Shown here: one piece after another, positions 7,257-59,700 of the stretch
How the letters are laid out: each line of letters starts with the position of its first letter
How positions within the stretch are numbered: the stretch's first letter is position 1
DNA from: Lytechinus pictus
Lineage: Eukaryota
DNA length: 64,000 bases
Reading direction: 5' to 3'
Assembly (NCBI RefSeq): GCF_037042905.1
Contig: NC_087250.1
Span: 23,190,001 to 23,254,000, forward strand
Notes under the pieces: generated by a model
The model's input: only the letters and a program-made list of their open reading frames with translations
Database searches by the model: none
What the model was told of the DNA's origin: nothing
Program-made: the position numbers and the translations under genes

Positions 7257-7290
<34 letters not shown>

Positions 7291-9152: not shown

Positions 9153-9190
<38 letters not shown>

Positions 9191-10587: not shown

Positions 10588-10629
<42 letters not shown>

Positions 10630-32700: not shown

Positions 32701-35700
32701 CACAGTTTTGCCAGATCACGGCCGAATTAATCTACAAGTTTTGTGAAATACATACCTTGTAGGAATTAATGACCCATTGTGGAAGATGAAAGCCAAGAGA
32801 GAGTAGTTTCTTGATCACAATCCTGTAATTCATATGGTCGCCCTTCTGATCGTACCTTTCTAGATAAGTCTGCAGGAGATGCCAGGCAAGTTCTGCAGCT
32901 CTACACAAGAAAATGAAGAGAAATATTATGAACATCACAGTGAACTGTTCTTATAAAATTTTGTAGGTGCTGACATAGTTAAGTCAGCTAATCTTATTTA
33001 ATTCATCCATATTTTCTGCTATTCCTAAGGCATAGATACCTTAGGGTATTATGTGATTATGAAGAACTGTACTATTATTATATATTATTATCTTGCTATC
33101 CAAGCAGAAGACATCATTCACCCTTGTTCTGAGCATTTTACTCTATGTAGAGTAAGTATTGACTAGATTCTATTTCGTTATTATCATAAATTTTATATCA
33201 ATTTTTTCTCTCTAGGAGATGCCAGGCAAGTTCTGCAGCTCTATGTGAGAAAAAAAAAATATATACTTAACAGCAAAGTGAACTAATTTTGAACCTTACA
33301 GGTGCTAACATAGTTAAAAGTCAGCTAATCTTACTTAAAGGGCTTGTCACATCGTCAGTGGGTTGTGGGTCAGTTGCGGGCAATCATCCGCAACTCAACC
33401 GCAAACACATTTTGAGCCATGTTTAAACTGCACTAATAGTATTTTTTATTATCTTGCTATTCAAGCAAGCTCATCCTCATTCTGAGCATTTTACTCTATG
33501 TAGAGTGAGTATTGACTAAATGCTATTCCATTATTACCATTTACTTTATATCCATATTTTTTTTCCTTCAAATTATGCAAATGAAGAGACAATTTGCCCT
33601 CATGTAACCTGAACATGTATACCTCCATGTGTTAAGAAATCCATTCACAAACAGGAAAAGCAGTTTGACAGTACTTACGTTGCTTCTCTGCCTAGGTTTA
33701 GGGAGCCGATGTCATTTGAAGCAAGCCATTTCCAGCTGCCGCTGTCTGCTCCGTTGCGGGATAGTTTTACACATCTAGGATGAAATAGCATACCAAAGAA
33801 TTGAATACTACATTCAGTATCATCGTTATTATCATTAACGTCAACATCATATTCATCATCATCATTATCATCTTCATCATCATCATCATCATCATGACCA
33901 TCATCATCACCATCATCACCACCACCACCACCATCATCATCACCACCACCATCATCATCATCATCACCATCATCACCATCATCACCACCATCATCATCAC
34001 CACCATCATCATCACCATCACATCTTACCTATGGGCCAGGCTTTCAAACACCGGAGTGAGAGGCAACCTGAATGTCTTGCAAACATCAATGGCTGTGTCA
34101 TAGAGCCCGCTGTTAACCAAGAAGCTCACTGTTTCATCAACCAACATCTTAGAAGCTGTGATAGAATGACAAACAAAGTAAAACACACAATGCACAGTTG
34201 TGACTTTCTTAGAGAATAATTAAGAATAAAGTCTATATCACAAATCTAAACCTGTGCATCATTTGCTTTATAAAACAAGGCCACAGTCTAAAGTTGTAGT
34301 AAAAAACTTGTTATAGCACCTACTGATTTTCATCGACTGCACAGGCAAAGAGGTCACATCTGGGGAACATTTCCTTAAAGGAATTGTCTGACGTTTTATC
34401 CGACAGTTACCACCATAGTAACAGTGCTTCTCAGCTAATCAAAATCAAGGAAAGTTGTCAGATCTCACAACTTGTTGCAGAAAAATGTTGATGAAATGCT
34501 ACTAACAACGCAAGTATAGTCAGTATGATATGTGCATTTAAGTGCACAAAAAATCTTGGTCATATACTGGCCATAAAGAGAGTTGCACAAAGTCAAATGA
34601 GATGCTTCAGCCAATGAAATGAAGGCTTACTTGTCACATGAGCCATATCAGGCTGGTGATTGGCTAGTTTGATCTTAGCAGATATCAGCTGGTACTCTTT
34701 CTCCAAATCGCCAAGCTCCAGAACATCGACTTTCCGCCTTGGAACTAAACAAAGAGAAATTGAAAAATTGAAAAAATTACTTAGAGGGTGACCAAATGTG
34801 ACAAAACCTCTAAATTTCTGATACTAAACACTATGGCCTGTATTCTGAACTCGGGTTTAAATTAAACCCTGGTTTAAAGTTGTGGTTTAACTATGGAGAG
34901 CCAATTGGAGCACAAATCCCTAACAGTACACATTCAATTTATTAACTGATATGACACCCAAATTATTTGTAATTGTCTGGAAATGATAACTGAAGTATTA
35001 TTCTTCATTATGAAAGCAAAAGGAAACAAAAAAGTAAACTAAAGAAATATACAATACAAACAGAATTTTTGACTCCCCATAATTTTAACACAGAGTTAGA
35101 CCATGGTCTAAGTTAAACCTGAATTCAGAATACGGGCCTCTGTGACACAGTCAAATCTGATTTAGTGATAACCTGTATAGAGAGACCATCTATCTATCAA
35201 GATCATCAGTTTGGTTTCCCTTAACACAAAAAAAACCTGCAGGTGGGCTGATTCAGCACCCCCCCCCCTCCCTCGTAAAACCATTTATTATAGACTTCAG
35301 TCTTTATTAATTCCTGACATAATGAAATAGGCTAATCATTAAATTAACAAATTCAAGTGAAACATCAACATTGCTGTTTCACCGGTAAATCAACAATTTT
35401 AATCCTCTAAATCATAGTGTTTATTGGTCTATTCATATATTTCTCATACATTGGCCATAAAAGGAAATAAGAAGCAATGAAGAAAAAATAATACGGTTGG
35501 TAATTTGAAGAACCAAAGTGTGATCGGGGACCCATAACACTTGGCTTATTGATTGATAATGGGGCTGATGTTAATAACTGATCAAGAAAAGAACAATATT
35601 AATGTTGCCAATTTGAAGAATAAGAACAGATCATGGCCATGTAACAAAGCTGATTTACCATGGGGCTGATATTTTACAATTAGTCATACACACTAATCAA

Positions 35701-38700
35701 TACAATCAATCATAGAAATCAGATCAACGATCAATGGCTCTGGTTTATGTTACAGATTTAAACCTGTGCATTATTTGCTTCATAAAGCAAATAATGTGGG
35801 CACGTCGTTGTCTAGTGGTTCTGACTCTCGCCTTCAAACAGAGGGTCGTGGGTTCGAATCGTAGCCATGGCGTGTTTTCCTTCAGCAAGAAATTTATCCA
35901 CACTGTGCTGCACTCGACCCAGGTGAGTCAAATGGGTACCAGCAGGAAGTAATTCCTCAAAAAGCTGTGCGCACCAGAATCAGTAGACTAGCTTAGCCAG
36001 GTTATAAACGAGTGCCTTGAGCACCTAGCAAGGTGGATACATGCGCTATACAAATCCTATATCATTATTATTTTATAAAACAGGGCCGCAGTATGGACTT
36101 GTAGTAGAAAATTCCTTAAAACCCCCTTTTAATTTTCATGGAAGGCATAGGCGAAGAGGTCATATCTGACTTCTATAATGACAACACAAGTATATTCAGT
36201 ATGTACGATGTGTGCCCGAGTATGGGCAAACAAAATCCTGGGCCCCATCTTACAAAGAGTTGTGATTTATCAGATCAATCACAACTATGGATGGCCAGCA
36301 AAGTCAACATCTAAAATCCATGGTTGTTCAAAATATTTTGTAGTTATGTGTAATCACACATTTCTCATTCTCGTGAAGATTCAGTTTGAATCTCTTTGTT
36401 TACTAAGGACACTCTGCACTTTTCCTCAAGGAAAAATTATGACATTGATGGATTTCCATATACTTGAGGTTGATCGGATCAATCATAACTCTTTGTAAGA
36501 CGGGACCCTGGGCCTGTCCCTGGATATCTTTTATATAGAGTACCGAAGTGATGACATCACAAAAATCTTATTTAGCATTTCAGCGTTTTTGATACCCTAT
36601 TTGGGTAGAGCATGATGAAAAACCCCCAGTTCCCAAATCTGGTGGGAATCGGTCCATGGGGGCCTTAGATATGAGCTCATGAATACATAATTAGCCCCAC
36701 TGAAGTCAGTGTATTATTGGTCATATCTTAGGCCCCCATGGACCGATTCCCACCAAACTTTGGTTGAAGGGGTTTTTCATCATGCCCTACCAAAATATGG
36801 TATCAAAAACGTTGAAATGCAAAAAGTGAAGATTGATGTCGTCACACTTCGGTACTTTATGACAGGGCCATGATATTTGAAATAATTCATAGCCCCGTAA
36901 CATAAAACTAAGCGATTGATTGCATTGATTACTGTGTATGATCAATCGCAAATACAAGCCCTGCAATCAATTACTAAGCTTTGTGTTACGGGGCCCTGAA
37001 TGGGTTCTATGTAGAAACCTACCAGGGTCACTGAGAGGGGTGCCTTCATAGTCTCTCTTGGGTGATAGCCCATTCATGTCCTCAGTTTTCTGCCATAAGA
37101 AAGGATAGTTACCAGTCTTTGTGAAAATATGAGCAGTGAAAAATGTACACATCATTAAAAAGCATGCATTGAAAGCACACATGTAGACTTTAAAAAAGTA
37201 AAGCCTTTGTCTTTGTTTCAAATTTTCTGACATGAGAAATGGTAATTACCAGTCTTTCTCAAATAAATTAGCAATGCACTCATTAAAAAAGTACATATTG
37301 AGACTTAAACAATGTCTTTGTATCCAGTTTTCTGCCATGAGGAAGGATAATCAACAGTCGTTTGATTAAACAAAAATGAACAATGTACTCATTAAAAAGT
37401 ACATATCTAAAGCACATTTGAAGACATACATAGAGTAAAACATATGTCTTTGCATTCAGTTTTCTGACATGAGAAAGGATAGTTACCAGTCTTTTGTCCA
37501 CACAAAAGAAAAAAAGAAAAACACACACTCTTGCATTTGATAAATCATCAGACAAAATCATTTCAAAAAGGGTTCTCATGATGAAAAAAAAATCTTATCA
37601 CTAAGAAATGGAAATTATTGAATTCATATCACATCAGGGTTCCCACAAAAATTTGAAAACAGAATTCCATGAATTTTCCATGACTAAATTGCTGCTTTCC
37701 ATGACTTCCCGTGACGTCCCGGGAGTTATGTAGAGTTTGGATATCACAAAACTGGGAAAAAATGGAAATCATGAACACCAATTACAATAGCAGAGTATGA
37801 TCACAGAGTATGAAAGTTGCGAGACACGACAAACTGGAGAGCTGCCATAGCCAAGAGGTAAATGCAATTCCATGCAGACCTGCCAACCTCTGGGAATGGA
37901 AAATTGTATTCTGTGATAAAAACAAATGTATTTTTCCCCAAAAAAGTGTATTTCATGATAAAATGCTTGGCGCACTCGCTCCACGCGGCGCTCAAGCTGC
38001 ATGCAAGCTTAAATGAGCACTGCTCTTGCAGATGAAAAAATAAAACAAGAAACATGTGTATATCTCACCCTGGTTTTAACAAAATGATTGAAAAAAAAAA
38101 CAAGTTACCTGAAATTACATTGATCTAATAACCATATTTGTGTACGTTTTATGAAATAGAGACATATAGAGATGATTTTTCTCAATAAATTACGATTTTG
38201 TAAAAAAAAAAAAATTTTAAAAGAAAAAATCGTACTGCCTTATTTTGGTAGCAAAAACGTACTAAATACGCCTAAAACGTACTGGTTGGCAGGTCTGTCC
38301 ATGACTTTTCACAAATTTTCCAGATTCCCCGACTTTCCATGACCATGACTGTGGGAACCCTGTACATCTATATGAATTATTCATCTTCTTGTTAACTTAC
38401 AATGCCTTCCATTTCGCTGACTGCAGGCTTGACAATCCAAGCATTATCTGGGTGTAGTAACCTAAGTGAATTCATGGCAGTGAGGTAGCAGCGTTCTTGT
38501 CTATTCAGGCTTTCCACTCCGACGATCTCCTGAGCCAGTCGGGTCGCTTGCTCGTACATGACGCTACCAGCTGACAGAAGAGAATTTACAAAAGAGAATT
38601 ATAGAGAAGTTAAGAATAATTGGCGGTAATGGAATGTTAAATTGGCGGTATATTGCCACTTCGTCCACTGCCAACTTGTCCACTCATCACATGGTCTACC

Positions 38701-41700
38701 TTCATTTAGTCTTATGCCATTCCTTTTATGAACATTTCATCTAACAACCATTTCGTCCAATAACCATTAGGTCCAATCATCACTTTGTCTAATCACCAGT
38801 TTGTTTATGACCATTTTATCTCATAACCAGTTGGTCTAATATCCATTTTATTTTCATTCTTTTCGCCAAATTAGCAAATAGTCCAATTAGACCAAATGGT
38901 ATATGGGTATTATGGACTAAATGGCTATTGGACCAACTGGTTATTAGATGAAATGGTGAGTGGACAAAATGGCAATTAGACCATGTGGATAGTGGACGAA
39001 CTGATAATAGACCAAATGATAGTAGACAAGACATGTAATTTGCATGTCAACTCATCTGCGATTCATAGAATATTTGCCCAGGAAACTCTTGGAATATTTC
39101 TGGTATTCCATTCTGAGCCATCCAATATAATGTAAATATCTCACCCTGTCTATTGTTGCCTCTTATTGGTGAATAGTGAAACTATTTCCTTTATTTATTA
39201 CTAGTGATAATATCTTTATATCACATGGTTATTGCCGATACAGGAAATATAAAAAACTATCTCACCCTGTCTATAGTTGCCTCTTATTGTATGGAATGCA
39301 AAGAGCAGGTCATAGTAGTTGATAGTTAATAGATCCACAGACCGAGCTCTCGACTCAATGATGCCAACGATCTGAAACAAAACAACAAAAATTCATGTGC
39401 AATCAATAAATTTGATACCATCTCAACCGTGCTTAAATCGTCTTAAGGGGAATCAAAAGAAAGTTTCTCAAGAAAATGTTCAATTGACTGAATACATTGT
39501 TGGATAGAATGAATTTGAATAAGCCTTTCATAAAGATAAAGGCCACCACACACTTTACGACTGTTCGTGATCTGACTTTTGAACAAATCACATTTTGCTC
39601 CTTTTCTGAAAATGTGAATGGAACATATCATTTTATTTGAGGTTAAAATTAATTGAAAGAATACTAATATAACCATTTTGAAAGATTGCAAGCCTTTATT
39701 TTGGAGTAAAGGCCAAATCAAATTGTATATAGCCAATCGTACGACTGCTATGACGTCATTATGACTAGATATTAAATCCGCTTTTATTCTAAGAAGGATG
39801 ATAGCATAGTCACAGATTTGAACATAGGTATTCGTACGATGATTTCGAACATTACACAGTAAGATATTCCAAGTCTCAATATTAGCATCAAATTCTAATA
39901 CGTTTTATTCCAAAATTGAGTCGCAAACCAATCGTAAGGTGTGCGGTTGCCTTAACGAGGATTACATCCAATTAATGAATTAAATCACTTGAGTTCAATG
40001 ACTAGAATAAAACTGCACAATGCAGGACCCCCTTCAGATATGATCTTTAGATGTAAAAGAAAGAACAGTGTTCCAGCCTTGGGAACCTCTGTCATATTTT
40101 ACCTCATCGTGAAGATCAATGTAGGGATACTGACAGAGCTGCTTCATTCGTCCTTGCTCACATAAAACCACAACAAACTGACGTAAACAGTCTCTCCTCC
40201 TGTAACGAAAATAAAGAAATTAACAGTCATAATATAAATCAACAGTGGATACAATTTTTAAAAACACAGTGTATATGGTCATCAAAAGGATTATTATTGT
40301 TTTATAAGATATATGGTAACAATTTAAAAATGAGTTTGTACAGAATCCTAGAAGATGACCACCCAAATGTCTGTTTGCATAAATCAAAGATATGTGCTAA
40401 ACCATTCTGGAAGCAATCATGTAATTGCTGAAAAATTAGCAAAATAAGCACAGCATGTTCAGCATTTTCCCCCAAGCAAAAATATTACAATGCTCCACAT
40501 GTGCATATCCCTGTAGGTGATGTACAGTACGATCATTTGTCAGCTTTCGCTTTCATGATTTCACAGAGTTCAGTCTATGTAACTGTACCTGGGTTCCGTA
40601 ACACAAAGGTTAGCGATTGATCGTACGCTTGATTTTTACCATTGATTGCACATTGTAGTCAATGGAATCAATCATGAAAATTTGTTCTACGATCATTGCT
40701 AAGCTTTGTGTTACGGGCTCCAGATCTATATCCAAGATGATACAGTGACAACTAATTTCAGTTTTACAGACTTTCTCAGGATATCAGTGTTAACTGCAAC
40801 TACAAGTTTCAATTATCTTTAAAAGACAAGTTTGAAATGAGTTTTTGATTGGGAAAACCTCAGACTCTCACCTTTCAGGGTCAAGGTTAGAGGTCATTGC
40901 TGATTAAACCTCATCATTGTAATCCAATTCAAGATGAGGTATCTTTATAATTATCCCTACATGATATGATTTGATAAAATTTGACCTCTCACCTTTCAGG
41001 GTCAGGGTTAGAGGTCATTGCTGATTAAACCTCATCATTGTAATTCAGTTCAACATGAGGTATCTTTATAATTATCTCTACATGATATGATTTGATAAAA
41101 TTTGACCTCTTACCTTTCAGGGTCAGGGTTAGAGGTCATGGCTGAGTAAGCCTCATCATTGTGACCCAATTCAAGATGGTACTTGAATATTTTCACCCAC
41201 AAGGTTGGCTGTGAAATATATAAAATAAAACAAATAATTACATTTTATATAAAAAAATTGAATTAAGAGTTAAGTACACATGTCACACTTTTATTAACTT
41301 GATAGATTCTTGATTGCACAGTCAAATTCATGTCTCCTCCATTTCTAGATCAAGAATGTAGTTCACACCTGACTTTTAAAATTCAAAATGACCTCTGCAA
41401 CTTTTGACCTCTTGACCCTAAAATCTACCAAGATCATCCTTATTCACAAATGTATATAACATAGTCAACAATAGTCAACTCAACAGTGGAAGAGCATGAT
41501 TACCTTGGCGAAGGACGATTTGTTTGCAAGCTGGCTTTAATAATAACGTTTCATTTACCGAGGGTAGCCACTTCAGTTGGAAACTGATCTACCAGTGGGC
41601 CCTGCATAACATAATTTGTTATTATTACCTTTCTCCAGTCTAAATGCTGAGCGCCAAGCAAGAAGGCAGAAGGTCCCATTTTTATAAGTCTTTGGTATGA

Positions 41701-44700
41701 CTCGGCCGGAGATTTCTTTCTATGGGCTTCAAGTATGTTAAAGAAAATACTGGTGCTATGCACTGACATAGCACCAGACCCGTTTCAATGCGTAATATAA
41801 TCTTCTTAATGTTCTATTCTTCTTAATTTGAAAGTCCAGCCCCCCCTACCCCTCCTCAGTGACGGTTGATGCAAATTACAGTTAATTGGTTTTTTTTGTC
41901 TAACCAAACATGTCAAAGGTGTCAATGATTACAAATAAAAAGAACTGAAAAAAAAAGGCGAAGAGAGTTGAAAAAAGCTGAAATCGAAAGAGCTCATACA
42001 CTTGTACAGAGGAGGTCTAAAATGAACTGAGATTAAGCTGAAAATAAAAACCAAAATAGCTTAAATCAGCTGAACAGATGGGACTCTCACACTCGAGCAT
42101 GTGTAGAGCAGTAGCATTAAAACGTGCTTTGCGTTTCAGTCAAATTCAGCCATTCCAGAGAAATAGGCAATAATCAACCCATTGCCGACTGGAACTGGGT
42201 GGCCTCTGTACAAAATCTATGGGAAATTTCAGAATTCGGTAGTCAACCGGTTAACGTACCAGATTCGGGTCATCTGTATCAGCAGCACTCAGTGCAGTCT
42301 TAGCCAATGAGATCACGAGCTCTCTCAATTCAAACTGCTCCAGTAGACCAATCACCTGAAGAAAACAAAAAAGAAAAGAGAAATTGCAGCCAATGCAAAA
42401 AGCCTGATGTTAAATGGTATACAAATAATGAATGTTTATGAGTGCAATGGACAGAATACTTCATGAGGTGAAAGATGAAATGATCCATTCAATGAGGCGT
42501 AGCCGAGTTAAATGGATCATTCATTTCATCTTTCACCGAATGAAGTATTCTGTTCACTGCACGAATGATAATTACATACATTATTTGGTTTATATGACAC
42601 CTAAAAATATATTCTTTTTCATATGAAATTTATGAATTTCGATGCAAAATATGCTCAGTCTGTTTTGACAATGACATGTTGATTGTCGCGTACATACAAC
42701 ATGCGCGCGTGCAATGGACAAAATCGTATGGATCCTAAATTGCACGGTTGATAACGTCATTGTAAAATGAGCTGAATGATCGATATAAAACAACCAATCA
42801 AATGACAAGGATCTATCAAGGTGTCATATAAAATAAAAAACTAACTATTTGTTTGATCTGCAACTGTCCCCAGGGGTCGTTGCAAAGAGTAACAGAAGCT
42901 ACTAAAGTTGTATTTGCTGCAGTCCTCCTAATCATTGTTTTTCGTATTAATATTATCTTTATTTTTGAACATCATCATCCCCATTGTCCCTACATCCCTT
43001 ACCTTTAGATGGTTAAGTCTCCAGCTTCTTCCCTAGTAGCTCTGCAGTCAAGAGAAGCCTATTAAGCAGGAAGTCCTCTGTGACTCACCTCCTGGAACCA
43101 CCCCTCCTTTCATCCCCCCTCATCCCTCCCATCCTCCTTCCTCACCTTCAGATGGTAAAGAGTCTCAAGCTTCTTCCCCTGTAGTTCTAAGAAGCCTGTT
43201 CAGCAAGAAGTCCTCTGCCCCTATCCTGTGACTCGCCTCCTGAAAGCACCCCTCCCAGCCCTCCCTTCATCCCCCCCCCCCATCCTCCTTCCTCACCTTC
43301 AGATGGTAAAGAGTCTCAAGTTTCTTCCCCTGTAGTTCCGTAGTTCTTAGAAGCCTATTCAGCAGGAAATCCTCTGCCCCTATCATGTGAATTGCCTCCT
43401 GAAAGCACCCCTCCCTTCATCCCCCCCTCATCCCTCCCATCCTCCTTCCTCACCTTCAGATGGTAAAGGGTCTCAAGTTTCTTCCCCTGTAGTTCCGTAG
43501 TTCTAAGAAGCCTGTTCAGCAGGAAGTCCTCTGCTCCTATCCTCTGACTCGCCTCCTGGAAGCATCCCAAGGCCTTCACAGGCTCACCTGTGTTCAGGTA
43601 GCAGTGAGCTCGTAGGAACTGACGGGACGCTGCGTTCCACTCACACCATGGCGACAGGAGACGGATGTAACCCTGGGTGGAGAGCGTGAGAATCGCACAA
43701 ATACTGATTATACAGATGATTGGTATAATTGATTTAATATAACGGTGAATGTAATCAATTGTAATATCTGCTCTGCAATCAATCAAAAGGCTTTGTGAAA
43801 ATGGACACAGGCAATGAATAATTTGAAGCAGTATTTGATCAGTTTCATTCATCATGTTGTGCATAATTGCACACTTGTATTTTGAAAGAAATTTGAAAAC
43901 ATAATTCCATGACTTTTCCATGACTAAATTGCTGCTTTCCATGACTTCTATTCTGGCACGGTTGGCCTCACCATACATGTAGAGTATGAGAGTTGCAAGA
44001 CACGACAAACTGGAAAGCTGCCATAGCCAAGAGGTAAATGCAATTCTATGACTTTTCCATTACCAAATCCCCTTTCCAAGACTTTTCACAAATTTTCCAA
44101 ATTCCCTGACTTTTCCTTGACTTTCCCTGACAACAAATTTTTCCAGGATTCTCCATGACTGTAGGAACCCTGATTATTGACATCTGGGCCGACCCTTATT
44201 ATCACCATCTGAAAGAAGACTATGGCTCAAACCTTGAACCGCTGCATCATCCCGTAACTCCAATGGTTGGATTAAAGGTGCATGCTACTAAGCCAAATTG
44301 GTTACCATAGTTTTTTTTTTCCATTGGTTTATGCATTGTCCTTTACAGACACATTGGGGAACTGAGGGGAAATGGCGATCAACTGGCATCATGGTCGGGC
44401 ACAGACAGGTGGAGAATGCGAGAAATATCATTTAATTCTTATCTCATTTTTATAAAGCCTTGGGCATTTGCAAATTTGTATGACCAATCCTCCACACACT
44501 TATGGGGTGTTGCAAGAAACTTGTGATCAACTGCAAGTCTATTTTTGGTCCCTAAATCAATCATATGTCTTGCAGTTAATTGCAAATTAGTGATTGGTTG
44601 CTAATTTGCTCCTTGAAACAAGAAGTTTAATCTGATTTGCTACAGCTAACGTTGATCTATCAGTTGTAAAATTGCAACAGAATATTTGCAATTGATCACA

Positions 44701-47700
44701 AATATTTTCTTGCAACACCCCCTTAGTCTGCGGGTACAGACCTTTGGTTTTTGCATAATGTACAATGCAGAGTCTGCAGTGGTGAGACTAGATTCCCTCG
44801 TGTACTGTGGCTGCTTGTTATTTGACACAGAAAGAGACTTTGGAGTCTAGTCTTCACTCAAGATATGGTATGATTTGTGTGAGTGTCAAATTTGAGTCTG
44901 TTCTGGCAGACAACCCACCCAACCCAAGAACCTTAACCCTCAAGCTCCCGGGGTATTTTGATTCTTGTCATTCCCGGGGGGGGGGGGGGGGGGGGGGGGG
45001 GGCCATTATGGCCCCCCCTTAAGATCTCGGCCGCCGATCGCGCGAGCGACGCAAAAATTTGCACGCTGGTAGTGTGTGATGTAATCTACAAGGCTGTATG
45101 GTAAAATTTTCCAAAATATTGAGATTTTATTTTATATGAATTAATTATGCTAATTTATGCATAAATCATACTTTTTGCTCTAATTCACTAAATAAAGCTC
45201 CTAGAATGCTAATTTTTGGTAAAAATATTCTTTGTAGCATTCTTAACAATCGTAATTCAAAAAAACTTCGGTTTGGAAATCAATTTCTTATGTATTTTAT
45301 TGTTTTATGAATTTCTTATGTATTTCTTTGTTTTTTTACTTTTGGTTTTTTATTGTTTTTTCAATGGAAATCGTTCCAGACTTAATTCTGATCATAAACA
45401 AGGCAAAATTAATTAAGTTTAATCAGTAAAAGTAGAAATAATGATACATTTATGAATTTTGGCTAAATACACTATTTGCATTGGATTTGTACATGAAATC
45501 ACGTTTATGAGCAATTTTGGGTCTGACATGCACTTATATAATGTTGCGTAATGTCGTATCCGCGTACCCGGGCGTCACAAATTTGGTCTCAAAATTTGCG
45601 CGAGACTTGAAAGTAAAAAGTCAGTGAGCGGCGAGGTAAAAAAATTTCTCGCAGCAGATATATCGCGAAAATTGTTGAGGGGGGGGCCATTATGGCCCCC
45701 CCCCCCCCCGGGAGAATTAGGGTTAAGTTGTGTATGCATGGTTGTGCCTTGTATACACAGTAGGGGGAATGGATGAAAGATAAGTCCTACCTGTAGTTGT
45801 GTATACTGGCACTTTGACATCAAGTACTCCTCAAACAGGAAGTTGGCACTGATTGGCCAGCTGATCACGGTCAAAGGTCAAGGTCAAATAACAACTGCAT
45901 CAGCTTAATATATTTGCTACTAACTACACTCATCATAATTTCATTTTGAATCAATATCTTAAGTTAATTTCACCTGGGGATGCATAAAATTGGATATTTA
46001 GGTATTTGATTATGACCAACTTTATAAAATAAAATAATTGAAGCTCTGAGGCTGTTAAACAAGAAGTTGGATTCAAACACAACTAAAAAACATCTAATAC
46101 AACTTGATTACCAATCATTCAAAAGTGTCTAGTTGGGCTTTGGATTTGATTTTGTGTGTTGTCAATCCTGCATTGGGACACCCCCTGGTCATGATTTTAG
46201 ATTCCCTTTGAAACAATAGCCCCATTACAAGAACCTTTATTTGAAAGTTGAAAGTTACCTGAAATTACATTAATCCAACTACCTATTCTTATGCAAGTTT
46301 TTATGAAATAGGGAAATATAGAGACGATTTTTCTCAATAAAATATGATTAATTTTTTTTTTTTTAATCACATTTTATGAAGAAAAAAACGTAATGCCGTT
46401 ATGCCGTAAATACGGCAAAAACATAATGGTTGGCAGGTTTAATTGTTCTTGGAACACAGTGCAAAGGATACATTAACTGAGCTAGTGCCTTCACTGCTCC
46501 TGGGAAGAATTTACCCCAATCCTGCAGTCCCTCCACTCTCCTGTTCGCCCTCTTTGCTAGAATGGAACGGACATAGCTCCCTCCACTTCCCTGTAGAAAC
46601 AACTCAACCAGGGTGGGTGAGGGTGGACTAGTCCACGATGAAGACGGGGAGGTTTGGCTGTTGTCTGTGGAGATTTCAAGGACTGCCATCTGCCTCAGGT
46701 GAAATTCCCTACAGAATTCGAAAGTAAATAATAATAATAATAATAATAATAGCTGGATTTATAAAGCACTTTTTGCCTGAGGATACAAAGCGCTGTTAGT
46801 ATTACCCCGGCTTTAGCTCGAGCTACCATCACCAGCACTCAGTGCATTCAAGGGATTACTCCTGCAAGGAATTCACCTCTCCTGGGTCGAGTGCAGCACA
46901 GTGTGGATAAATTTCTTGCTGAAGGAAAACACATGAAGACGGACCTGCCAACCTCTGGGAATGAAAAAGTGTATTCTGTGATTTTAAAAAAGTGTATTTT
47001 CCCCCCAAAAAGTGTATTTCATAATAAATTGCATAGCGCACTCGCTCATCGCGGTGCTCAAGCTGCATGCAAGCTAAAATGCGCACTGCTCTTGCAGATA
47101 AAAAAAAAACATTTAAACATGTGTATATCTCACCCTGGTTTTAACAAAATGATTGAGAAAAAAAAACAAGTTACCTGAAATTACATTGATCTAATAACCA
47201 TATTTGTGTAAGTTTTAAGAAATAGAGACATATAGAGATGATTTTTCTCCATAAATTACGATTTTGTAAAAAAAAAATATATATATATATATTTCTACAA
47301 AAACGTATTTTTAAAAGAAAAAACGTACTGCTGTATTTTGGTTGCAAAAACGTACTAAATACGCCAAATACGTACTGGCTGGCAGGTCTGCAATTGGGTA
47401 CCAGCTTTCAAAGTTCTGGGTTGGTTTGAAGCACTAAATAGTGATAAACTTTTCAAAATCAACAATAATCTAGTTATATTGTATTACCGCAATTTGTCAA
47501 CATCAGGGATGCCACTAGGTGTCCTCCAAAAATACTGAAACTTATCGCGGGCCGGGATAGTGTCCAAGAAATTTTTTTTTTAGGGGGGTCCACCTTTAAT
47601 TTTGGGATGGACACATGTCACAGGTAAAAAATTAAACAAGCAAAAAAAAAAAAAAAAAAATTAGGAGGGGGGGGGGGGGGGGGGGGGTCCGCCCCCACCT

Positions 47701-50700
47701 CAAATTTAGGGGAGGGGGGAGGACCAAGTGGTTTCTTACCTTCTTGTGATCGATGACTTTGAAGTCAATTAGGTTTGAAAAACTGACGGTAGTTAGTTGT
47801 GTGTTTCTCATAGAACGCTAGACCAAAAGCTTCAGTCTCTGTATTTTGGTTGTTCAGCTGAACCGCGTTGGCTCCACTCACCAATAGTTAGACTGAAGAG
47901 TTGTTGGCCCGTACATAAAGACTACGTATCAGCTAACCCAGGGAGCTCCGGGCCGGGGCTAGCTTATACGTAACCCAAGGAGCTCCGGCCCGCTTTCCGG
48001 GCCGGAGCTCCCTGGGTTCCGTATCAGCATGCAGCAGTAACGTTAGATCTAACATTCGGCGGAAACCCGATTTTCGGATCGTTTTTGGCACATAAAATGT
48101 CACATTTTAAAAAGATAATTACATCCAAACTTATAAAATATAACTTATATAAAATTCAGAAACATCGTACCTTAGACCGCAGTTACCGCTAATTCCTTTC
48201 AAATGATGATCAAAACTTAGTCATCCTCGATTCCTTCGTTGGTCATCGTAAGTTGCCATCTTGGATGACGTCATCATCTGTACAGACGTGATTCGTGCCG
48301 CTACTTTGTGCTTGTCTATGAGCGTGCGTTTGGAATTTGTCGCTCGCATTGATTGGCCAGGATATCGATAATTCTAATCAGAAAGCCTTGATAAAAGCAT
48401 AACTCAATGAACGTAGTAGGCAGTGCGCGCGTTTATAATTTATGTACTGTATAAAAGCAAATATCTCGGGGGAAATATCTCTCACTCGGTCGATCGACAT
48501 GCATCGCAATCGGAAGAAATAGGGGGGAAAAAAGGAGGACTTTCGGTTTTTTTTAATACACAGAAAACAGGAAAAGTCGGAAATACGGAAATAAGACAGA
48601 TAGCAGGAAAAAAGCCGGAATTCCGTATAAATACGGAAAAGTGGCATCCCTGCAACATAATTATAAAACAATATTCAATATTCAATATTTTATTCAATAT
48701 CGCATAATTTTGATCGTATTGAAATATCGCCCAGCAAAATTCCATTCAAATTGTGACATAAAATGTATAGTGGGGAGTGTGGTTACGACACTCGTATTTC
48801 AATCAGAGAGACATTGGTTTGAATCCTAGCCATGGTGTGTTTTCCTTCAGCAGGAATTTCCCCACATTGTGCTGCACTCAACCCAGGTGAGGTGAATGGG
48901 TACCATAGAGATGTATACTAATTACGCTAGAGTGCGGAGTCGCCATAGGCGCGCGTACTTAACGTCTGTGATTGCGCGGAGCATGGTCGGCCATTGCTCG
49001 ATAGGTCTAGATTCGCAAAAGTACCCGGATGTTCCCATAGCTCGTACGTTGTAACGCTGAGAAAAGGGATGCTGTCTCCGGCTTTTATCTTGAAGAAAGG
49101 AATCCAACCTCATTACAATTAAAAATATGAAAGACAAATTGTATCTCAATAAACTATTAGTGTGATTACATGGGAATTCTGCTATTAATTTGTCTTTTTA
49201 TCTGGATTCTCGGGATGAAATTCTCTATAAAGTGTATTTACGATTACCTGCCACTGATGCCTGTTAGGCCTATAGATAATAATATATAACAGTATTGATA
49301 ATATGACATAACTAAGTAGAAAAAAATTAAACATACAACATTAAAAGTAAATTTTGACAATCATTTCAAAAGACAGTTAATTAGCCCATCTTCTCCGGAC
49401 TTCCCTATCTTTGGCTTTAATGATACATCATCCTTTGGGCTTTTTTGGCACATTCCTTCGTCCACATGATTCCGTGTTCTCATGACCATTTTTTTTATGA
49501 TGGATATAATTTTGTAAATTTAATTCATTTCAACTCTATTCGTTTCACTTCACCTCAATTCATTTTTTTTTCATTCAAACATAATACAAAGTAATATATA
49601 TCGGATAGGCTCTACAATTTTACAGATGAATATTCTTATCTCGTAAAAAAACCAGTAGGCTTATAAATTGAGCATCAAATGACCAACTGCATGAAACTTG
49701 CATTAATTTGTATGAAGTATATACTAGTTTGTTTTAAATGTACAATAATTTGTATAAGAGTTTTGATCTTTGATTACTATTTTATTAGCAAGTATAGAGT
49801 ATTTAAAGGGCATCTTATTAATTTTACATCATGGTGAGCCTCCCGTTACACCATCAATGGTAAAACTATATTGGGTTTTCAGTGCACTTTTAATTTTTTT
49901 TTCTCATAGGAACATGATAAATTCCCTAAATCTGCAGGCCTATATCGCACCGAAAATGAAATTGTTCAAAATTTTTTGCTTTTAATACCCTTCTATTTAA
50001 GTTAGAATCGGTTTATTTTATTCGCTTTTTAGGGGGTGGGATGTAATTAAAGTGACATACGCACCCGGAAGAAAATTCACAATCAAAATAAAAGTATACA
50101 AGTACAGGGGGCTCGACTGGACCCCTCCCTGACAGGTATCACTTGAGGTTAAAATTAGGATCACTCAACAGCCAACAATAATTGTATTATCTTATTCCAA
50201 GTATTTGTCAGTTTCACAATAGGCCTATTATTGCTTAATATGTTAGGTTTTTGTACTCACAATTTTGCAAAACTTTTTTATTTTAAGTTTTATTAAGATT
50301 GCAATAGATGTATCTCAGGATATTTGTTATCAATTGGTTTTATACACTCAGTTGTAGTAATAATATTCTTTGTAGTATAGTTCAAATTATAATTATAACT
50401 CACTCCCGCTGTTTCTTCTCCTCTCCTCCTTCTTCCATACCTTAATTATTATTCGATCCTTGATTTGTTCACATAATTTGTCAAATCAAAGGATTAAACA
50501 CCAGCGATATATTATGTCAACAGAGTATTTCAGCCGATCATTATATTATTTCAGCCGGGGGGGGGGGGTCAAGTCTAGATTTTCCAGAAAATCAAAGAGA
50601 AACTCTTTTATGTTGCGTTAAACACGCATTGTAATTTGTTTATCATGTTATTTGCAAGGCAATACTGTAAACATAATTTCCCCCATTAGGCCTCCTGTAC

Positions 50701-53700
50701 ATTACAAAATTGTACAACTGCATGCGCGTTTTTGATATGCAAATTATGCTGTGAACAAACTTTTCTACATTGATTTGCACGTAAGAAAGTAATTAAAATG
50801 ATCTGATGGTTGCCAATATTGGAAATCTAAATCATATAACTTATAGATTCATCAATTAACTGGACCAATGCGTAAATCATTTTCAAATACTATCAATAAA
50901 TAGTAATTTTATGACTCACGAGTTATTTTGATGACGGTTACATCGACATAAATCCATGGGGAAAAGGAGTTATGCCCATATGATTTCTATGGGTAGATCT
51001 ATACATGTATATATGGAAAATAAATTATAACAAATATTCTAAAAAATGAAGAAATAAATTATCAGCATCATGGTTATTATGAAACTACTTGAAAAATGCA
51101 ATTGTGTTTTTTATCAATATTGTGTCTCAGATCAGGCGCAGATCCAGGATTTTCCAAAAGGGGGATCGAGCCGAGGGTGGATAATTCAAGGGGGGGTACA
51201 CTTGTGTTTTAACGGCATTTAACATTACAAATTTTAACTGTGCCTCTCAAAATTGGGGGGGGGGGGTACAAGCCGGCTCTGCCCCCTCCCCCTTAGATAC
51301 GCCAGTGTCTCAAATGCATTAGACACTGTTATATGGCCTGTAGGCCATAGGCCAAGTTAGGCTTTCTTGACTAAATTTATGAGGTCAACTTGAACACCAT
51401 GTTAAATTTGTTAATCAGGACTCCCTAGAACAATATGCCCAGGACTACATGTTATTTTTAATATTCATCCCTTCCAAATCATTAGAAAATAACAGTCACA
51501 TTAGTGTATCAAAATGTTATGACCAAAACAAAAACAATTGGGGATGTCTATCATTGGCCTGTATAGGCCTATTATGCGCTATTGATATTCCTATATAGGC
51601 ATTTTTGTTCTCAGTTTCGTTAGATTTTTTGATAATTTAAACTGTAATTCTGTACATTCAATACTATTTAACTTTTCCATTTGCTTTCGCGCTCATATGT
51701 CATCATTTTGTTCCGTTTCTGTGCTATCACGGTACATGGCCCATAGGTACTGTACGCGCATGGCAGGCTGCGAAGACCTATCGAGTAATGGCGGCCGGTC
51801 TCCGCGTAATCACAGCGATTTGACGAAGTACGCCCTCTAGCGTTATTAGTATATATCTCTATGATGGGTACCCACTAGGATTTAATCCTTGACGCTTTAG
51901 CGCTGATATGGAGACTCAGCTACGGCCGGGGTAATAATATATGCAGAGCTGCCAACCACACTTGACCAAAAATCCTATTATTTCACCCCAAAAATCCTAT
52001 TTTTAGGCAAAAAATCCTATTCATACCCGTCGTGTACTTTCCTACTATACATGTCATTATTTTGTTGTGCTCACTGTAATTTTTACATCCGACAGGCAAG
52101 GTTCCACATTAACTTTTTTGGTGGTGGCCCGTTCGGGCCACCAAAACCTTTAAATTATTTTTTTTGGTGGCCCAATATTAAAGTTTGGTGGCCCCCAAAA
52201 AACAGAACAGGGAAAAAAAGTAAAAAAGAAAAATTAAAGAAAAAAAAAGAAACAAAAGAAAATATAAAAAAAATTAATAAAAAATGGGGATGGGGGAAAA
52301 AATGAGAAGCCATTACAAATATTTTTTAACAGCTGTACGTAGCAACAGTTTAAGCCGATTGAGCAAATAATTTTCACTCACCTTTTGGGGATGGTGCATA
52401 TTTCTATTTTTATAACCTTAATTTCGTTTGTATTATTATTTTTTCAGTAGAAACATATTCTTTAATCAGGCATACCGGTATTCAATGGGAAGGGGTATAT
52501 GGTTTAACCACTGTCAAAAAAAAAAAAGTAAGAAAACGGTAAAAGTTATATCTGGAAAAAAGGTGTGAGAAAAGTCCTTTATTTTGTTTGCCAAAATGTT
52601 TGAAAAATTCACATTTCATATCAATGAAATGCCTTCCCAAAGTATTTTCTTTATGAAGAGTGATTTAAGAAGTCATTTATAAACAAAAAAGAAAGAAACT
52701 GTCTGCTTATTTTTTGCTAGAAAAGACACAGCTTCGAAAGAAACCAAGTATCAACATACATACAAATGCACATGTGGGACTGTGATGTACTCACCTATGT
52801 GTTTTAATGTGTATTAATACATTTGGAAATCGGTCTTTTTGAGTCAAAAGAGAGGTCATAATTCCTGTTTTTAATGCTTGCAAATAATCAGTTTACACCA
52901 GATTTGAGTAATCTGGACTGTAGAAGGGCATTTCATTGGTGTAAAATGTGACTTTGACATAGATTTTCAAAGTTCTGTGGAAGATTTCTTAGCAGCAACA
53001 TTTCGTATCGTACGTAGCTCCCCGAATCTTAATACGCTGCTAGCGCACAGATAGCTACATGTATAGCTGCTGTGGTTTCATGCAAAGCTCACGCCAGCCG
53101 GCCGGCAGGATAATAGCTACTGTATGCTATAGCGGTAAGCCTATGTACTGTCATGTGTGTGTGTATTTGTGTGTAGATCAACAAAAAGGACGCATGACGA
53201 ATTGGTTGCAATTTGAACTGTATAAAGTTGATAAATGCGTGAAAAATCGGGAGAAAAATTGCGCTACTTTGAAAATTATTGGTTGCCCGATTCGGGCCAC
53301 CAAAACTTAACATTTTTCAATAATGATTGCCCGAGGTGGATTTCTGTATGTCGAGCCTTGCCATAGCTATATTTTCAAAAAATCGTATTTTATCTATAAA
53401 AATCCTAGTGTCGTATTTTAAGTGAAAAATCGTACGGAATACGACAAAATCGTACTATTTGGCAGCTCTGTATATGTTACCATGTATCAAAGCACAAAGT
53501 AACAGTGCTATATAATGAAACATATTGTTATTACGTAAGAAACTTACACAGTCTTTGTTTGTACTGGACTTGACACACAAGATGACACCCAGACTAGAGA
53601 GTGGTAGGCTTGGAGGATGGTGCATGTTTCTGGTATTACATCACAGGTTAACTTCTTAATACATTCAGCAGACCATGGTAGCTGAGATGGGGTAAGAATG

Positions 53701-56700
53701 GTAAGGTAAATAAGATTGGTATCGTATCTCGGGTTAACTTCTTAATGCATTCAGCAGACCATGGTTGCTGAGATGGGCTAAGAATGGTAAGGTAAATAAG
53801 ATTGGTATCGTATCTCGGGTTAACTTCTTAATGCATTCAGCTGACCATGGTAGCTGAGATGGGGTAAGAATGGTAAGGTAAATAAGATTGGTATCGTATC
53901 TCGGGTTAACTTCTTAATGCATTCAGCAGACCATGGTAGCTGAGATGGGGTAAGAATGGTAAGGTAAATAAGATTGGTATCGTATCTCGGGTTAACTTCT
54001 TAATGCTTTCAGCAGACCATGGTACCCGAGATGGGGTAAGAATGGTCAGGTATATAATATTGGTATCGTATCTTAGGTTAACTTCTTAATGCATTCAGCT
54101 GATCATGGTAGCTAAGATGGGGTTAGAATCGTGAATAAATGCAGTCTTACCTTCAACTAAATTTTACAGATTGCTAAATTTCAAGTGCATCCACAGGGGG
54201 CATAACTACAAACAATCATCAAACTCTAAATTAATCTTTAATGCTGCTATGACAATTACACAATTTTTGGTTCCAGCATTGGCACAATTCAATTGTGCCT
54301 ATTCATAACAATGTGTGTACCAGAAGAAAAGTGCAAATAAGTCTTTAAAGGACAAGTCCACCCCAACAAAAACTTGATTTGAATGAAAAGAGAAAAATTT
54401 AACAAGCATAACACTGAAAATTTCATCAAAATCGGATGTAAAATAAGAAAGTTATTACATTTTAAAGTTTTGCTTCATTTCACAAAACAGTTATATGCAC
54501 ATCTCGGTCGGTATGCAAATGAGGGAACTGATGACATCACTCACTCACTATTTCTTTTGTATTTTATTATATGAAAAATGAAATATTTTGATTTACTCGT
54601 CATTGTCATGTGAAATGAAGTTTCATTCTTCCCTGAACACATGGAATTCCATTATTTTAACATTTTGTGCTTCAGGCAAGGAGGTCCTAATCATCAAATT
54701 CGTAGAAATTGAAATATTGTATAATTCAAACAATAAAAAACAAAAGAAATAGTGAGTGAGTGAATTCATCGACTCTCTCATTTGGATGTAACTGGCTCGT
54801 TCATATAACTATTTTGTTAAAATTAAGCAAAACTTTGAAATGTCATAACTTTCTTATTTTACATCCGATTTTGTTGAAATTTTCAGCATTGTGATTGTCT
54901 GATTTTTCTCTATTGATTTAAGTCAACATTTTCCTGAGGTGGACTTGACCTTTAAGTTTAGCAACTACATCATATAAACCTAACTATTTTACCTTACTCA
55001 GGGAGTGGAGAATGATCATTGTAACTTACCTGTGATTCTAGTATAAAGATCAGACACTCAAGAAAAAGAAACTGCATGAATTCTAGTTGGAAGAATCTTG
55101 CAGCACAGAATGAACATATTTTATCTTATTCAGGGAGTGGGGAATGTGCACTTTTGCTCACTTCTTATTCTAGTTTCAAGATCAAGTACTCAAGGTCCAG
55201 AAGTATGAATTAATCTTTATCATTTGGCAACATAATGTGAACCTATCTCAACTTACCCTGGGAGAGGAGAATGTGCACTGTAACTCACCTGTGATTCTAG
55301 TCACAAGGCCAGACACACAAGAACAAGAAACTGCATCTTGCAGCACAGTATGAACATATTTTAACTTACTCAGGGAGTGGGGAATGTGCACTTTTGCTCA
55401 CTTCTTATTCTAGTTTCAAGATCAAGTACTCAAGGACCAGAAGTATGATTTATTCTTTATCATTTGGCAACATAATGTGAACCTATCTCAACTTACCCAG
55501 GGAGTGGAAAATGCTCATTGTAACTCACCTGTGATTCTAGTCACAAGGTCAGACACTCAAGAACAAGAAACTGCATCTTGCAGCACAGTATGAACATATT
55601 TTAACTTACTCAGGGAGTGGAGAATGTGCACTTTTGCTCACTTCTTATTCTAGTTTCAAGATCAATTACTCAAGGACCAGAAGAAAACTATGAATTAATC
55701 TTTATCATTTGGCAACATAATGTGAACCTATCTCAACTTACCCAGGGAGAGGAGAATGTGCAATGTAACTCACCTGTGATTCTAGTCTCAAGATCATACA
55801 CTCAAGGACCAGAAGAAACTGCATGAATTCTAGCCTGAGTTGGGAGAACCTTGCGAAGCCGGCAGCCACGCAGACTACAGAGAGGTCACTACTCAGAGTA
55901 TGGTGTATGGGACTATGGGCAATGCCTTGGCCAAGATGACCTAAAAATTCAACAACAACAAAAATGAAAATAAGTTATATCCCACATATTAAAAATAGTG
56001 TATCCTATTGTCAAAGCAAAAATACCTCATTTGATAAAATGTAAAAACACTGTTGACTGCAAAATATTTCTTCTAAATTGTTATAATCTTTTTACGCTTC
56101 AATGGATGCTTGCTGCACATTTTCATCAAGGATAATTATTTGGTTGATATGAGTTAGCAATTATTTCCTCAGTTATAAATATATATACCTTTCCATAGAC
56201 TTTTCAATTTTGATAAATCCCCCCCCCCCCTTGTTCCAATCTCTCAAGCACTTTCTCTTGCTCTCTCTCTCTTCAATCTTCATATCTCTCTCTTTATCTC
56301 TTCTCTCACTCTCTTTCTCTATCACTCTCTCTTCACCTCTCTCTTTCTGTGTGTGTGTTTGTAACTTTGTATATCAGTCTCTCTCCCTCTCTCTCCCAAA
56401 CTCCACTTCTCTATTTCATTCTCCCTTTTTTCTTCTACTTACTCAATTCAGCGAGAAGATTTTCAGGTTCACCTCCTGCGACGTCAACAAGGTGAAGAAC
56501 TGTTCTGAAAACTCCTGTTGGGTCCATAATCCTACTAAGAGCCTGTGAAACCTGCTCCCTTATAACCTGATTCTGGGGACTAGATACACACAAAATATTT
56601 AAATCCTTGTCTGAAATGTTTAATATATAATTCTACTAAGAGCTTGTGTAACATGTTCCCTTATAAATTGATTATGTGGACTAGATACATAAACACAATT

Positions 56701-59700
56701 TAAAACCTTGACTGAAGTGTTTAGTCCATAATTCTAGTAAGCGCTTGTGTGAATACTACTTGATTTGGGGGACGAGATACATTCAAATAATTTAGAACCT
56801 TGTCTGAAATGTTCAGTCCATAATCCTACTAAATATAACTTTTCTTGCACTCAAATCAAACCTTTTCATCAAGACTTTATACTGTGGAATAATCTCTACA
56901 CAAATTTTGAGTATGTGAAATCATGTTTAACAGTTCAAATTTACTTACGTACACCACAGCATGAACTCCTTCCTATCAATTCTGGGTGAATTCCTTTCAT
57001 GTTAACTAGGCCACTGCCATTTATAGCAATACAAGGCAAAACCAGAAAATGCTTTTGCCATCACGCTAAACAGGGCCCGCTGGGAAAAAGTTTTTCGAAA
57101 CTGAAGTGGCTACGCTAAATAAATATGACATTATTTATTGTTATATAGAATCCCCTTCTTTTCTCAATGAGATAAATTCTGAACAAAAAGAAAAAAAATA
57201 ATGACTTCAAATTATATCCACGCTTACACATTTGATATGATGATGTTGCTGGCGAGTTTCTGGGCAATATCCATCGGAGGCTGGAGCTGCAAGAGAGAGT
57301 CTGCGAATCCTTGCATTTCCATGGCAACGGAAGAAGATGAGAGAAGATTGATGCATTCCTGGAGTGATTGGATGTCCTGGATGATGGTGGGGTCTAATTG
57401 GAAATAAAATATATTAAAAGGGATTTTAAAGAGGCACTCTAAGTGAGAAGTCAGGAGAGGAAGGCTGAAAAGAATTATCATCATCATCATCATCACAATC
57501 ATCATCATCCTCATCAACAACATCATTATCATCAACATCATCATTGTCATCTACACCAACATCATCATCATCCTCATTGTCATCAACATCAACATCATCA
57601 TCATCATCATCATTGTCATCATCATCATCACAATCATCATCATCACCTCCATCATCGTCATCATCACCATCATCGTTATCTTCATCAACATCATTATCAT
57701 TGACACCAACATCATCATCATTTTATGATGATCATCAACACGATCATCATCTTGACCACTACCATCATTATCATGGTCTTTACCGCAACTGTGTAAAATC
57801 ACTAACTATCACCAAAACTTACATCACCATCATCACCATCGTCATCACCACCACCATCATCACCATCACCATCATCATCACCACCACTATCATCATCACT
57901 GAATTACCTTGATCAGACAGCTCTAATCCTAGATCCTCCAAACTGAACACTCTCTTGACCCCCATGTGGATGTCCTCTACCAGACCTACCGGCTGAAGAA
58001 CTGATATCAGATTCTGAGAGGAGACAGAGGATGAGAGAGAATAAGAATTACAAACAAAGTAGATAAATAAGAATTATTTTATTAGACTAAAGCTCCCTTT
58101 ACACCAGATGATGTTCTCACTTCGTTGTTGAAATTCAGAAGAAAACCTAGGATGATGATGATGCACAGCATTTGTAAAGCGCCATATATCTGTCAAATAC
58201 ATTCAAAGGCGCATTGGAGCCAGCCAATCTGGGTCGCCTACAAGGGCGCGCACACAGAACTGTGACTCGCAGGTCTCTCCTCTCGATATAACTGATTGGG
58301 GGAATGCAGGTGGACCACTACACTGGGGTTTCCCCCTACTCTTATATGAATAGTGCAGTGGGTTCTTAACGTGCAAAGGTGGTGATTCTCCTCTACACTG
58401 GGCCTTCATTTAACGTCCTATCAGAGTAAAGGAGTGTTTTCCACTGTAACATAGCCTGCATCTATGAAACAGGGGAGAGACGTTTACACACAACGCACTG
58501 GCTTCAGTCATTCGCCCGGGGTGGACTCGAACCCACGATCTTTGGTGCGACTGGCAGACGCTTCACCGACTGAGTCAACTTCGTTCTCTATGCAGCGCCA
58601 AATTCGTTTGATTTTCTAGTAAAGCATGAAATCGTCAAGTGCATGTGACATCCGCGCCAAGTCCTTGTGAAGTTCACGTTGCGTGATTGGTGTTCCCACC
58701 AAGTTTATGTCGCACGCAGAAGCGTTCCATACTGCGTCGAAACGGTTCCCGCTATATTCTGACTACATCCAGCAGATTGCGAGACTTGTTGAACCTTTGT
58801 CTATTTGGACGTAGCGCCGGCTAAATGTGTGTGGTGCCGCGTAGCGGCCGTGTATTGGCAGTATAGTTTTGCGATATTCTTTCTGTGTCTGCTACTTCTA
58901 TGCTACGTTGATGGAGCTGTTAGTAGGTCCTTTCTGCATAATTACTATGCATCGTTCAGATGGGTTTACGAAGAACATGCAGACTATTATCACGTCAATA
59001 ACATTTCTTGCTACGCTCTCAGTACGCTCTTTAGCAGTTCCAACTGCACCATGGCCATTTGACGCAGCATGAACTATAAGGACATAGCATTGGTGCAGTG
59101 GGGGTAACAGAATTATAGATAGATGTTTATGAATTATGAGTACAGTAGATGAATAGAATAATACAGCCCTTAACACAATAATGTAGTGACTGCAAGATTG
59201 GACTTACTCTTTTGATAAGGCATGGCATGTGTGTGTTACAATCCAAGAAAAACCCTAAAGGCTTGTTGGCAACCTAGATAGAGAGAGAGTGAGTGACAGA
59301 GAAAGGGAGATGAGTTGAAAAGAGAAGAAAGCAAGAACAAAAAGAAAAGATTAGGGCATAATTATTAAAAGCACTGAAATTAATATATAAAACCTGATTT
59401 TTGGACAATTCATCATTTTGAACTTAACCCTAACTAGGCCGGGCTTTTTTGGCTGTTCTTTGGCCGGGGGAGGGGGGGGGGTTGATTCAACCCCCCCCCC
59501 CTGAGATCTCGGCCGCCGATCGCGCGAGCGCCGCAAAAATTTGCACGCTGGTAGTGTGCGATGTAATCTACAAGGCTGTATGGTAAAATTTTCCTAAATA
59601 ATGAGATTTTATTTCATATGAATTAATTATGCTAATTTATGCATAAATCATACTTTTTGCTCTAATTCACTAAATAAAGCTCCTAGAATGCTAATTTTGG

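Follow-up and report, generated by a model that had tools for sequence, protein, structure and literature searches.

Why do local duplications inside a gene gather at its splice junctions? The question is raised by a 64,000-nt stretch of Lytechinus pictus DNA (assembly GCF_037042905.1, contig NC_087250.1, positions 23,190,001 to 23,254,000; hereafter the window), which carries the last 25 coding exons of NUP160 on its minus strand. A sequence-only reading of this stretch had named ten sites at which an exon-intron boundary, or the intron beside it, is copied locally, and all ten are present: eight span NUP160 junctions and two abut acceptors. We report here that junction copying is non-random in this window and that the NUP160 arrays are likely harmless, left behind by DNA repair and unequal exchange for which the conserved exon acts as the anchor.

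Local duplications coincide with splice junctions

We catalogued all local direct repeats in the window with an offset of 40–500 nt and a score of at least 45 bits, which gave 15 clusters; three were removed as microsatellite-like (two of these abut donors), two lie outside gene spans without junction contact, and ten lie inside the spans of NUP160 and a second gene with SH2 exons. All ten non-microsatellite clusters in the two gene spans touch a splice junction within 10 nt, whereas random placement expects 1.8 (P = 3e-8). This is the enrichment over background on which the sequence-only reading depended, and it holds in this window, the only place where it was counted. Strict spanning of a junction was found for 8 of 10 clusters against 1.7 expected (P = 2e-5). 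When the null was restricted to the 12 repeat-poor bins among the 30 that cover 36900–44000, P was still 4e-5, a rough control in that these bins contain the arrays themselves. Away from junctions, the same catalogue holds no non-microsatellite duplication of this size class in the ~48 kb gene span. The P values apply to this window only, since its selection rested on the pattern itself and the 10-nt tolerance was fixed once the data had been inspected; a looser first pass gave more weak clusters, mostly with long offsets or dispersed repeats.

Microsatellites in the gene spans also lie close to junctions: 4 of the 10 are no more than 25 nt away, where 0.3 would be expected (P = 2e-4), and one of these four is a polypyrimidine tract. 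(ATC)n microsatellites at 33819–34024 and 57474–57902 each start at most 10 nt from a NUP160 donor and read (GAT)n on the transcript, and an (AAT)n microsatellite lies 19 nt from an acceptor. Two clusters outside the gene spans were rejected as members of the pattern: 3436–3810, which is 92% dispersed repeat, and 27483–27860, whose cluster also matches 28503–28778 and 34828–35144. The sole young long-period array off annotated junctions is an intergenic CAT microsatellite at 26114–26322, with a 48/96-nt higher-order repeat of 92–95% identity.

The NUP160 gene model

The NUP160 model (29658–63647, minus strand) has its 5' part past the window end, and its exons are numbered N1 onward from the first NUP160 exon inside the window. 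Every intron of the 25-exon model is bounded by GT..AG, and the joined exons form a single open frame of 1038 aa. When six NUP160 exons were scanned with the NUP160 Pfam families (PF11715, PF23354, PF23347), four scored at or above the curated cut-off, one slightly below it and one had no match. Compared with a Lytechinus pictus Nup160-like protein (P0002), the model is identical at 1022 of 1038 residues without a gap, and exon 12, with three hits among 16 candidates, is 100% identical to Lytechinus pictus Nup160-like; the proteins used for comparison are database predictions. The 16 of 1038 residues that differ, together with a share of sampled words of 0.20 in the best public run, were read as marking a divergent haplotype or a sister species; the near-identity itself places the source in L. 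pictus or a very close relative. Small exons at 56949–57010 and 54151–54216 were considered and rejected: neither fits the frame, and collinearity with relatives is achieved without them. NUP160 contributes 49 splice junctions and the two genes together 56.

Anatomy of the junction duplications

Arrays spanning a junction occur at 8 of the 49 NUP160 junctions, four of them donors (N8, N12, N14 and N16) and four acceptors (N7, N9, N18 and N22), all read on the minus strand. Every array has the intact exon at one of its edges, from which the copies extend into the intron. The copies hold 4–115 nt of exons that are themselves 67–219 nt long, with one splice site per copy. Seven of the eight are tandem, as the sequence-only reading had described for all of them; the eighth, N16, is a single displaced copy. 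Self-comparison of the window found no match between different arrays, which are therefore separate events, in agreement with the independence claimed earlier. The smallest offsets are 86–143 nt in 9 of the 10 duplications, a range noticed post hoc. Exon-side ends fall near the exon middle in four arrays (N7, 64/137; N8, 79/167; N9, ~62/134; N12, 115/219), and the others at 12–23% of the exon or outside it.

The largest donor array, at N8 (exon 55774–55940), occupies 54984–55854 and consists of six copies with 42–79 exon nt each, arranged as three a/b dimers of ~240 nt, that is, a higher-order (a,b)x3 repeat. All six decoy donors (55642, 55529, 55402, 55289, 55162 and 55030) keep GT. The a-copies closely match the real intron start, and the exon parts of all six copies keep an older Leu codon: residue 328 is Leu in all six and in both more distant proteins, and Met in the real exon and in L. 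pictus. At N12 (exon 43454–43672), three copies with a unit of 143–157 nt and 115 exon nt each fill 42997–43568; their decoys at 43297, 43146 and 43003 all keep GT, and their changes relative to the exon are mainly synonymous. We rejected the N12 copies as alternative exon halves, as the internal GT at 43588 is in phase 1 whereas the phase opened by the AG at the copy start is 0, and purine-rich sequence precedes that AG. The N14 array (exon 41114–41208; array 40865–41178) has a unit of 121 nt and two decoys, 40993 and 40872, both GT. The N16 duplication (exon 39266–39371; 39124–39289) is one 45-nt copy with a decoy GT at 39145; it sits 121 nt off with unrelated sequence between and so, strictly speaking, is not head-to-tail.

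On the acceptor side, N7 (exon 56443–56579; array 56516–56832) has two copies with a unit of 101 nt and 54–64 exon nt, and decoys at 56680, where AG is kept, and 56772, where it is lost. The N9 array (exon 53548–53681; array 53631–54132) has a unit of 86 nt and five decoys, four with AG. Its copies match the real exon at 33–35 of 36 positions over exon nt 1–36 and then at only 14–15 of 26 over nt 37–62, still above chance (P = 0.007), a step that may reflect an old copy whose junction end was renewed later or a switch at imperfect homology. The N18 array (exon 37023–37089; array 37082–37507) has three decoys, 37226, 37331 and 37463, all with AG, and just 4–8 exon nt. The N22 duplication (exon 32756–32900; 32874–33560) is one copy at a 340-nt offset with a decoy AG at 33240. 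All 27 exon nt of this decoy (33214–33240) are identical to the real exon, against 62 substitutions in 337 columns of the intron part, making this decoy, more than any other, a candidate for actual use or for recent conversion. The N22 decoy acceptor scores 12.6, compared with 7.4 for the real site.

The two remaining duplications are intronic. The sequence-only reading had placed acceptor-adjacent duplications at 63650–63900 and beside a Crk exon, and both exist, although they stop short of the splice site: the one near the N1 acceptor (63654–63898, minus strand, offset 141) ends 7 nt outside it, the one near the acceptor of the Crk-like exon 4379–4444 (4450–4641, minus strand, offset 127) ends 6 nt outside, and AG is missing at the matching place in each.

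Decoy splice sites decay and are probably bypassed

The arrays contain 23 decoy sites, of which 21 keep their dinucleotide (GT 12/12, AG 9/11), so the earlier statement that many copies retain it is correct. Scored with matrices built on the window's own junctions, many decoys equal or better the real site, and at N8, N12 and N16 there are donors identical from -3 to +6, hence with equal scores. The loss of GT or AG at 2 of 23 sites, compared with a neutral expectation of ~4 (P = 0.2; the copies are not independent), shows neither purge nor protection. Across all arrays, the exon parts carry 34 changes that are synonymous and 54 that alter the residue or create a stop (9 stops), plus indels. 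The silent share exceeds that of pure neutral decay (P = 0.006 at 0.26) and is compatible with it if the real exon, too, is allowed silent changes (P = 0.71 at 0.41).

Public reads and contigs of related organisms were drawn from 4 of 24 listed runs and for 36900–44000 only, which takes in 4 of the 8 junction arrays and is dominated by mobile-element reads. RNA reads of a related organism cover the exons at a depth of ~1–12 in the minus-strand direction and copy-only bins at ~0; the arrays may be absent from this organism. No decoy use was seen in this thin RNA, and no splice joint was among the 15 of 762 read joints and 40 of 2652 differences listed for the four runs. The protein model has no insertion at any array-bearing junction relative to two more distant proteins (one of which, P0001, was aligned over residues 1 to ~925 only). 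The exon-proximal sites are thus probably those used, as far as sequence comparison can tell.

We found no copy that comprises a whole exon with a splice site at each end and an uninterrupted frame, the hallmark of a mutually exclusive exon. Nor is any array seen to place a new intron inside formerly exonic sequence: the copies lie within GT..AG introns, and the exons on either side of these join in frame and are collinear with relatives. The suggestion that the decoys are raw material for exon or intron gain has no counterpart here, neither a gained exon nor a gained intron being evident, and for intron gain the idea had already been published for amphioxus repeats of this kind (PMC3087553, in excerpt).

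Array age

A DNA contig of a related organism covers 37124–37339 across the N18 copies at 94% identity, with 13 differing letters and one gap. Contigs of the same relative lose their match ~20 nt past the N12 donor; bin depth there equals exon-only cover, and the exon-proximal N12 copy is uncovered. One contig of the relative is unlike the window for 108 nt beyond the N16 donor region. These breaks suggest that the N12 and N16 arrays are limited to the window's lineage, although a coverage hole by itself proves nothing. The N8 array is older than the Leu-to-Met change at residue 328, since all six copies keep Leu and the real exon has Met. A search for orthologous loci in metagenome contigs gave 17 pattern matches, none of them confirmed.

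A proposed exon-anchored origin and its rivals

The explanation that we lean towards, with slightly more confidence than doubt, is that these are neutral local duplications of ~85–340 nt, each with one of its ends inside an exon or next to it, that they began by template-switching repair or slippage and are renewed by unequal exchange, and that the arrays are both born and renewed through homology anchored in the conserved exon. Ten separate duplications all lie at junctions, and both kinds of site are affected (four donors, four acceptors, two acceptor-abutting). Because exon sequence is conserved through time and shared by divergent alleles, repair or recombination starting there would meet an unlike intron, and joining with a jump back would double the exon edge together with the intron edge. 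Template-switching DNA repair or replication slippage is the likely origin, and unequal exchange the likely means of expansion and renewal: existing copies would exchange sequence, as two of the arrays, N8 and N9, already indicate, with the functional unit, pinned by selection, reseeding the array, and exchanges that bring decayed exon sequence into the real exon being removed. The N8 a-copies, with a renewed intron start and old exon parts, are as expected if exchanges carrying decay into the exon are purged. With the intact exon always at the array edge, the exon-proximal site would remain in use and the copies would decay. Against the general background of exon definition and nonsense-mediated decay, the arrays are likely neutral because the spliceosome would choose the splice site nearest the exon body.

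Evidence for birth between alleles comes from N12, where 10 of the changes that separate copies 2 and 3 from the exon are synonymous and 3 are of other kinds (P = 0.01 against 0.41, for one among the five arrays with sufficient exon sequence). At 43469, 43514 and 41169, moreover, the relatives' reads differ from the window, and some copies carry the relatives' letter and others the window's. The N12 differences and the mixed letters have the appearance that would be expected of copies derived from different alleles. In the accessible part of a review, heterology is described as leading to heteroduplex rejection and faulty break repair as leading to short tandem duplications (PMC7407515); that text backs the ingredients of the mechanism, not its application to splice junctions.

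Several points weigh against this explanation. The silent bias is confined to N12, with N8, N9 and N14 rich in non-synonymous changes and N7 even, so inter-allelic birth either does not apply generally or has left traces that were overwritten. A start anchored in the exon accounts less well for the two duplications that end outside it and for N18, with only 4–8 exon nt, and the microsatellites near junctions point to general retention or instability of exon flanks rather than to homology. The data are one window, selected for its pattern, and the high heterozygosity of sea urchins and lancelets enters the argument as background. A broader version, possible but doubtful in our view, holds that in polymorphic marine invertebrates exons are islands of likeness between homologues, that repair running from an exon into an unlike intron routinely yields a two-allele junction duplication, and that the "mirages" described from lancelets (see below) would be a genome-wide, heterozygosity-driven footprint whose splice sites are ignored through exon-proximal choice on both sides.

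The sequence-only reading had offered two alternatives: a mutational process centred on splice junctions, which fits the ten-of-ten bias as a possible cause, and ordinary duplication that is merely tolerated and recognizable there. As worded, the latter does not account for the data, since mid-intron copies should be tolerated at least as well and be just as visible, yet none of the ten lies there; it survives only as faster loss from mid-intron. In that form, duplications arise everywhere, mobile elements and deletions quickly replace mid-intron DNA, and only the old, protected exon flanks retain copies. By contig depth, 18 of the 30 bins of 36900–44000 are high-copy repeat and the repeat-poor bins cluster around exons; the microsatellites likewise lie near junctions; and the age of the N8 array and the old core hidden in N9 mean that high copy identity need not indicate a young origin. 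The enrichment nevertheless persists under the repeat-poor null, rough as that control is, and the long gene span free of such duplications away from junctions is hard to square with retention, which we judge unlikely.

Exon-anchored homology also has to be set beside breakage. Exons carry positioned nucleosomes and gene bodies are methylated, and breaks or paired nicks linked to chromatin or transcription at exon edges (through positioned nucleosomes, methylated exons, R-loops or polymerase pausing) could be followed by end joining that duplicates the intervening piece. The narrow range of smallest offsets and the four exon-side ends near the exon middle are what such a process might leave, and paired nicks have been proposed as a source of short tandem duplications in rice (cited in PMC7407515, in the part available). 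The remaining ends, however, lie near one exon edge or outside the exon, and the size range was noticed afterwards; we consider breakage quite unlikely.

We give little credence to selection for the decoys, under which copies would route a fraction of transcripts into nonsense-mediated decay or adjust how the intron is removed; the sequence-only reading had put forward a reservoir of unproductive splicing of this sort. All 21 decoys that keep GT or AG, many of them scoring at least as well as the real site, would give a premature stop well ahead of the normal end if spliced, the N22 decoy has kept all its exon letters amid a diverged intron, and in human 6-16 and CBS arrays nearby pseudo-sites are used (PMC1557585, in excerpt). 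Retention of GT and AG is nonetheless no higher than the neutral expectation, and the N12 and N16 arrays look lineage-limited by the relative's contigs, with the reservation about coverage holes made above. A function for the decoys is, on this comparison, unsupported.

Finally, two haplotypes or noisy reads written in tandem by the assembler are a very improbable source, even though the best public run shares no more than 0.20 of the sampled words with the window. As many as six copies in one array differ from one another and carry stops and indels, the threefold N8 dimer with an ancestral codon absent from the real exon is a structure that two haplotypes written in tandem cannot produce, and that array's age and the independent contig over the N18 copies also argue against an artefact.

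Other features of the window

The second minus-strand gene, which has SH2 exons, lies at 4379–17990, with SH2 matches on two exons other than 4379–4444. It is probably Crk-like, in line with the label given in the sequence-only reading; the profile test covered SH2 only. A 611-nt NUP160 intron at 45861–46471 (minus strand) has the donor GTATCCTTT and a branch-like motif near its AG, and both of its junctions are unduplicated; by the consensus, it is presumably of the U12 type (minor spliceosome). Inside a NUP160 intron, the segment 47504–48652 is bounded by 12-nt inverted repeats and has minus-strand donor-like signals (near 47741 and near 48150) and acceptor-like signals that do not belong to NUP160; it is possibly a non-autonomous transposon with a captured gene start. 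A palindromic 600-nt element is present in four copies, ~72–84% alike (9655–10252, 21090–21700, 54342–54957 and 61776–62360), with shorter relatives elsewhere, and further palindromic elements include those at 36535–36860 and 61385–61773.

Relation to known junction repeats

The locus itself is modest and its repeat type is known; why junctions attract such duplications is the interesting part. Should the bias extend to the whole genome and to newborn duplications, it would be an unrecognized mutational bias that shapes intron growth and misleads annotation and read mapping, and it would supply thousands of natural tests of how the spliceosome chooses among near-identical donors and acceptors. 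Our literature search, which most subscription papers lay beyond, found no echinoderm case and no genome-wide count of junction repeats.

Tandem duplication of whole exons can give mutually exclusive exons, which likewise place exon-derived copies in the next intron. The NUP160 copies differ in being partial, in having one of the two splice sites and in mostly containing stops or frameshifts. Intron gain by tandem genomic duplication (PMC4974935, PMC3443670; discussed in PMC3087553) likewise starts from a short duplication within a gene, by which splice signals are doubled and intron sequence is added; here, however, what was added extends an intron that already existed, and the protein remains collinear with those of relatives.

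Also comparable are human minisatellites whose first unit lies on an exon-intron border, described in the available text of PMC1557585 for F7 intron 7 (37 bp), 6-16, CBS intron 13, LMNB2 (100 bp) and PDGF intron 4 (81 bp). As in NUP160, donor sites are reiterated behind the real one; in the human loci the first is used alone or mostly, and in F7 the first donor is chosen from identical ones, in repeats of a type whose copy number varies from person to person. Those are single donor-side loci described as oddities, whereas here donors and acceptors recur in one gene with copies 65–94% alike.

By their sequence architecture, the NUP160 arrays belong to a repeat type that has already been named, the lancelet "mirages," reported in amphioxus Adh3, the globins BflGb6 and BflGb9, troponin C and PGBD5 (PMC3087553 and PMC3902484, as far as excerpts of them go). 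Both are tandem copies of intron-exon boundaries inside the intron, at 5' and 3' boundaries alike, of similar unit size (60–160 nt in the amphioxus globins and PGBD5, in the same excerpts), and in both many but not all copies keep AG or GT. Both also appear homogenized within the cluster with the edges left out, to judge here from the N8 dimers and the N9 identity step rather than from a tree. In the available portion of PMC3087553, mirages are said to leave splicing undisturbed, their mechanism is called unclear and they are proposed as a route to new introns. Unstable length, from one haplotype to another or in somatic tissue, is a further mark of mirages. What the present window adds to the single amphioxus cases, as those excerpts present them, is a count: in an echinoderm, 8 of 49 junctions of one gene are copied and, measured against background, every sizeable local duplication inside a gene of this window lies at a splice junction.

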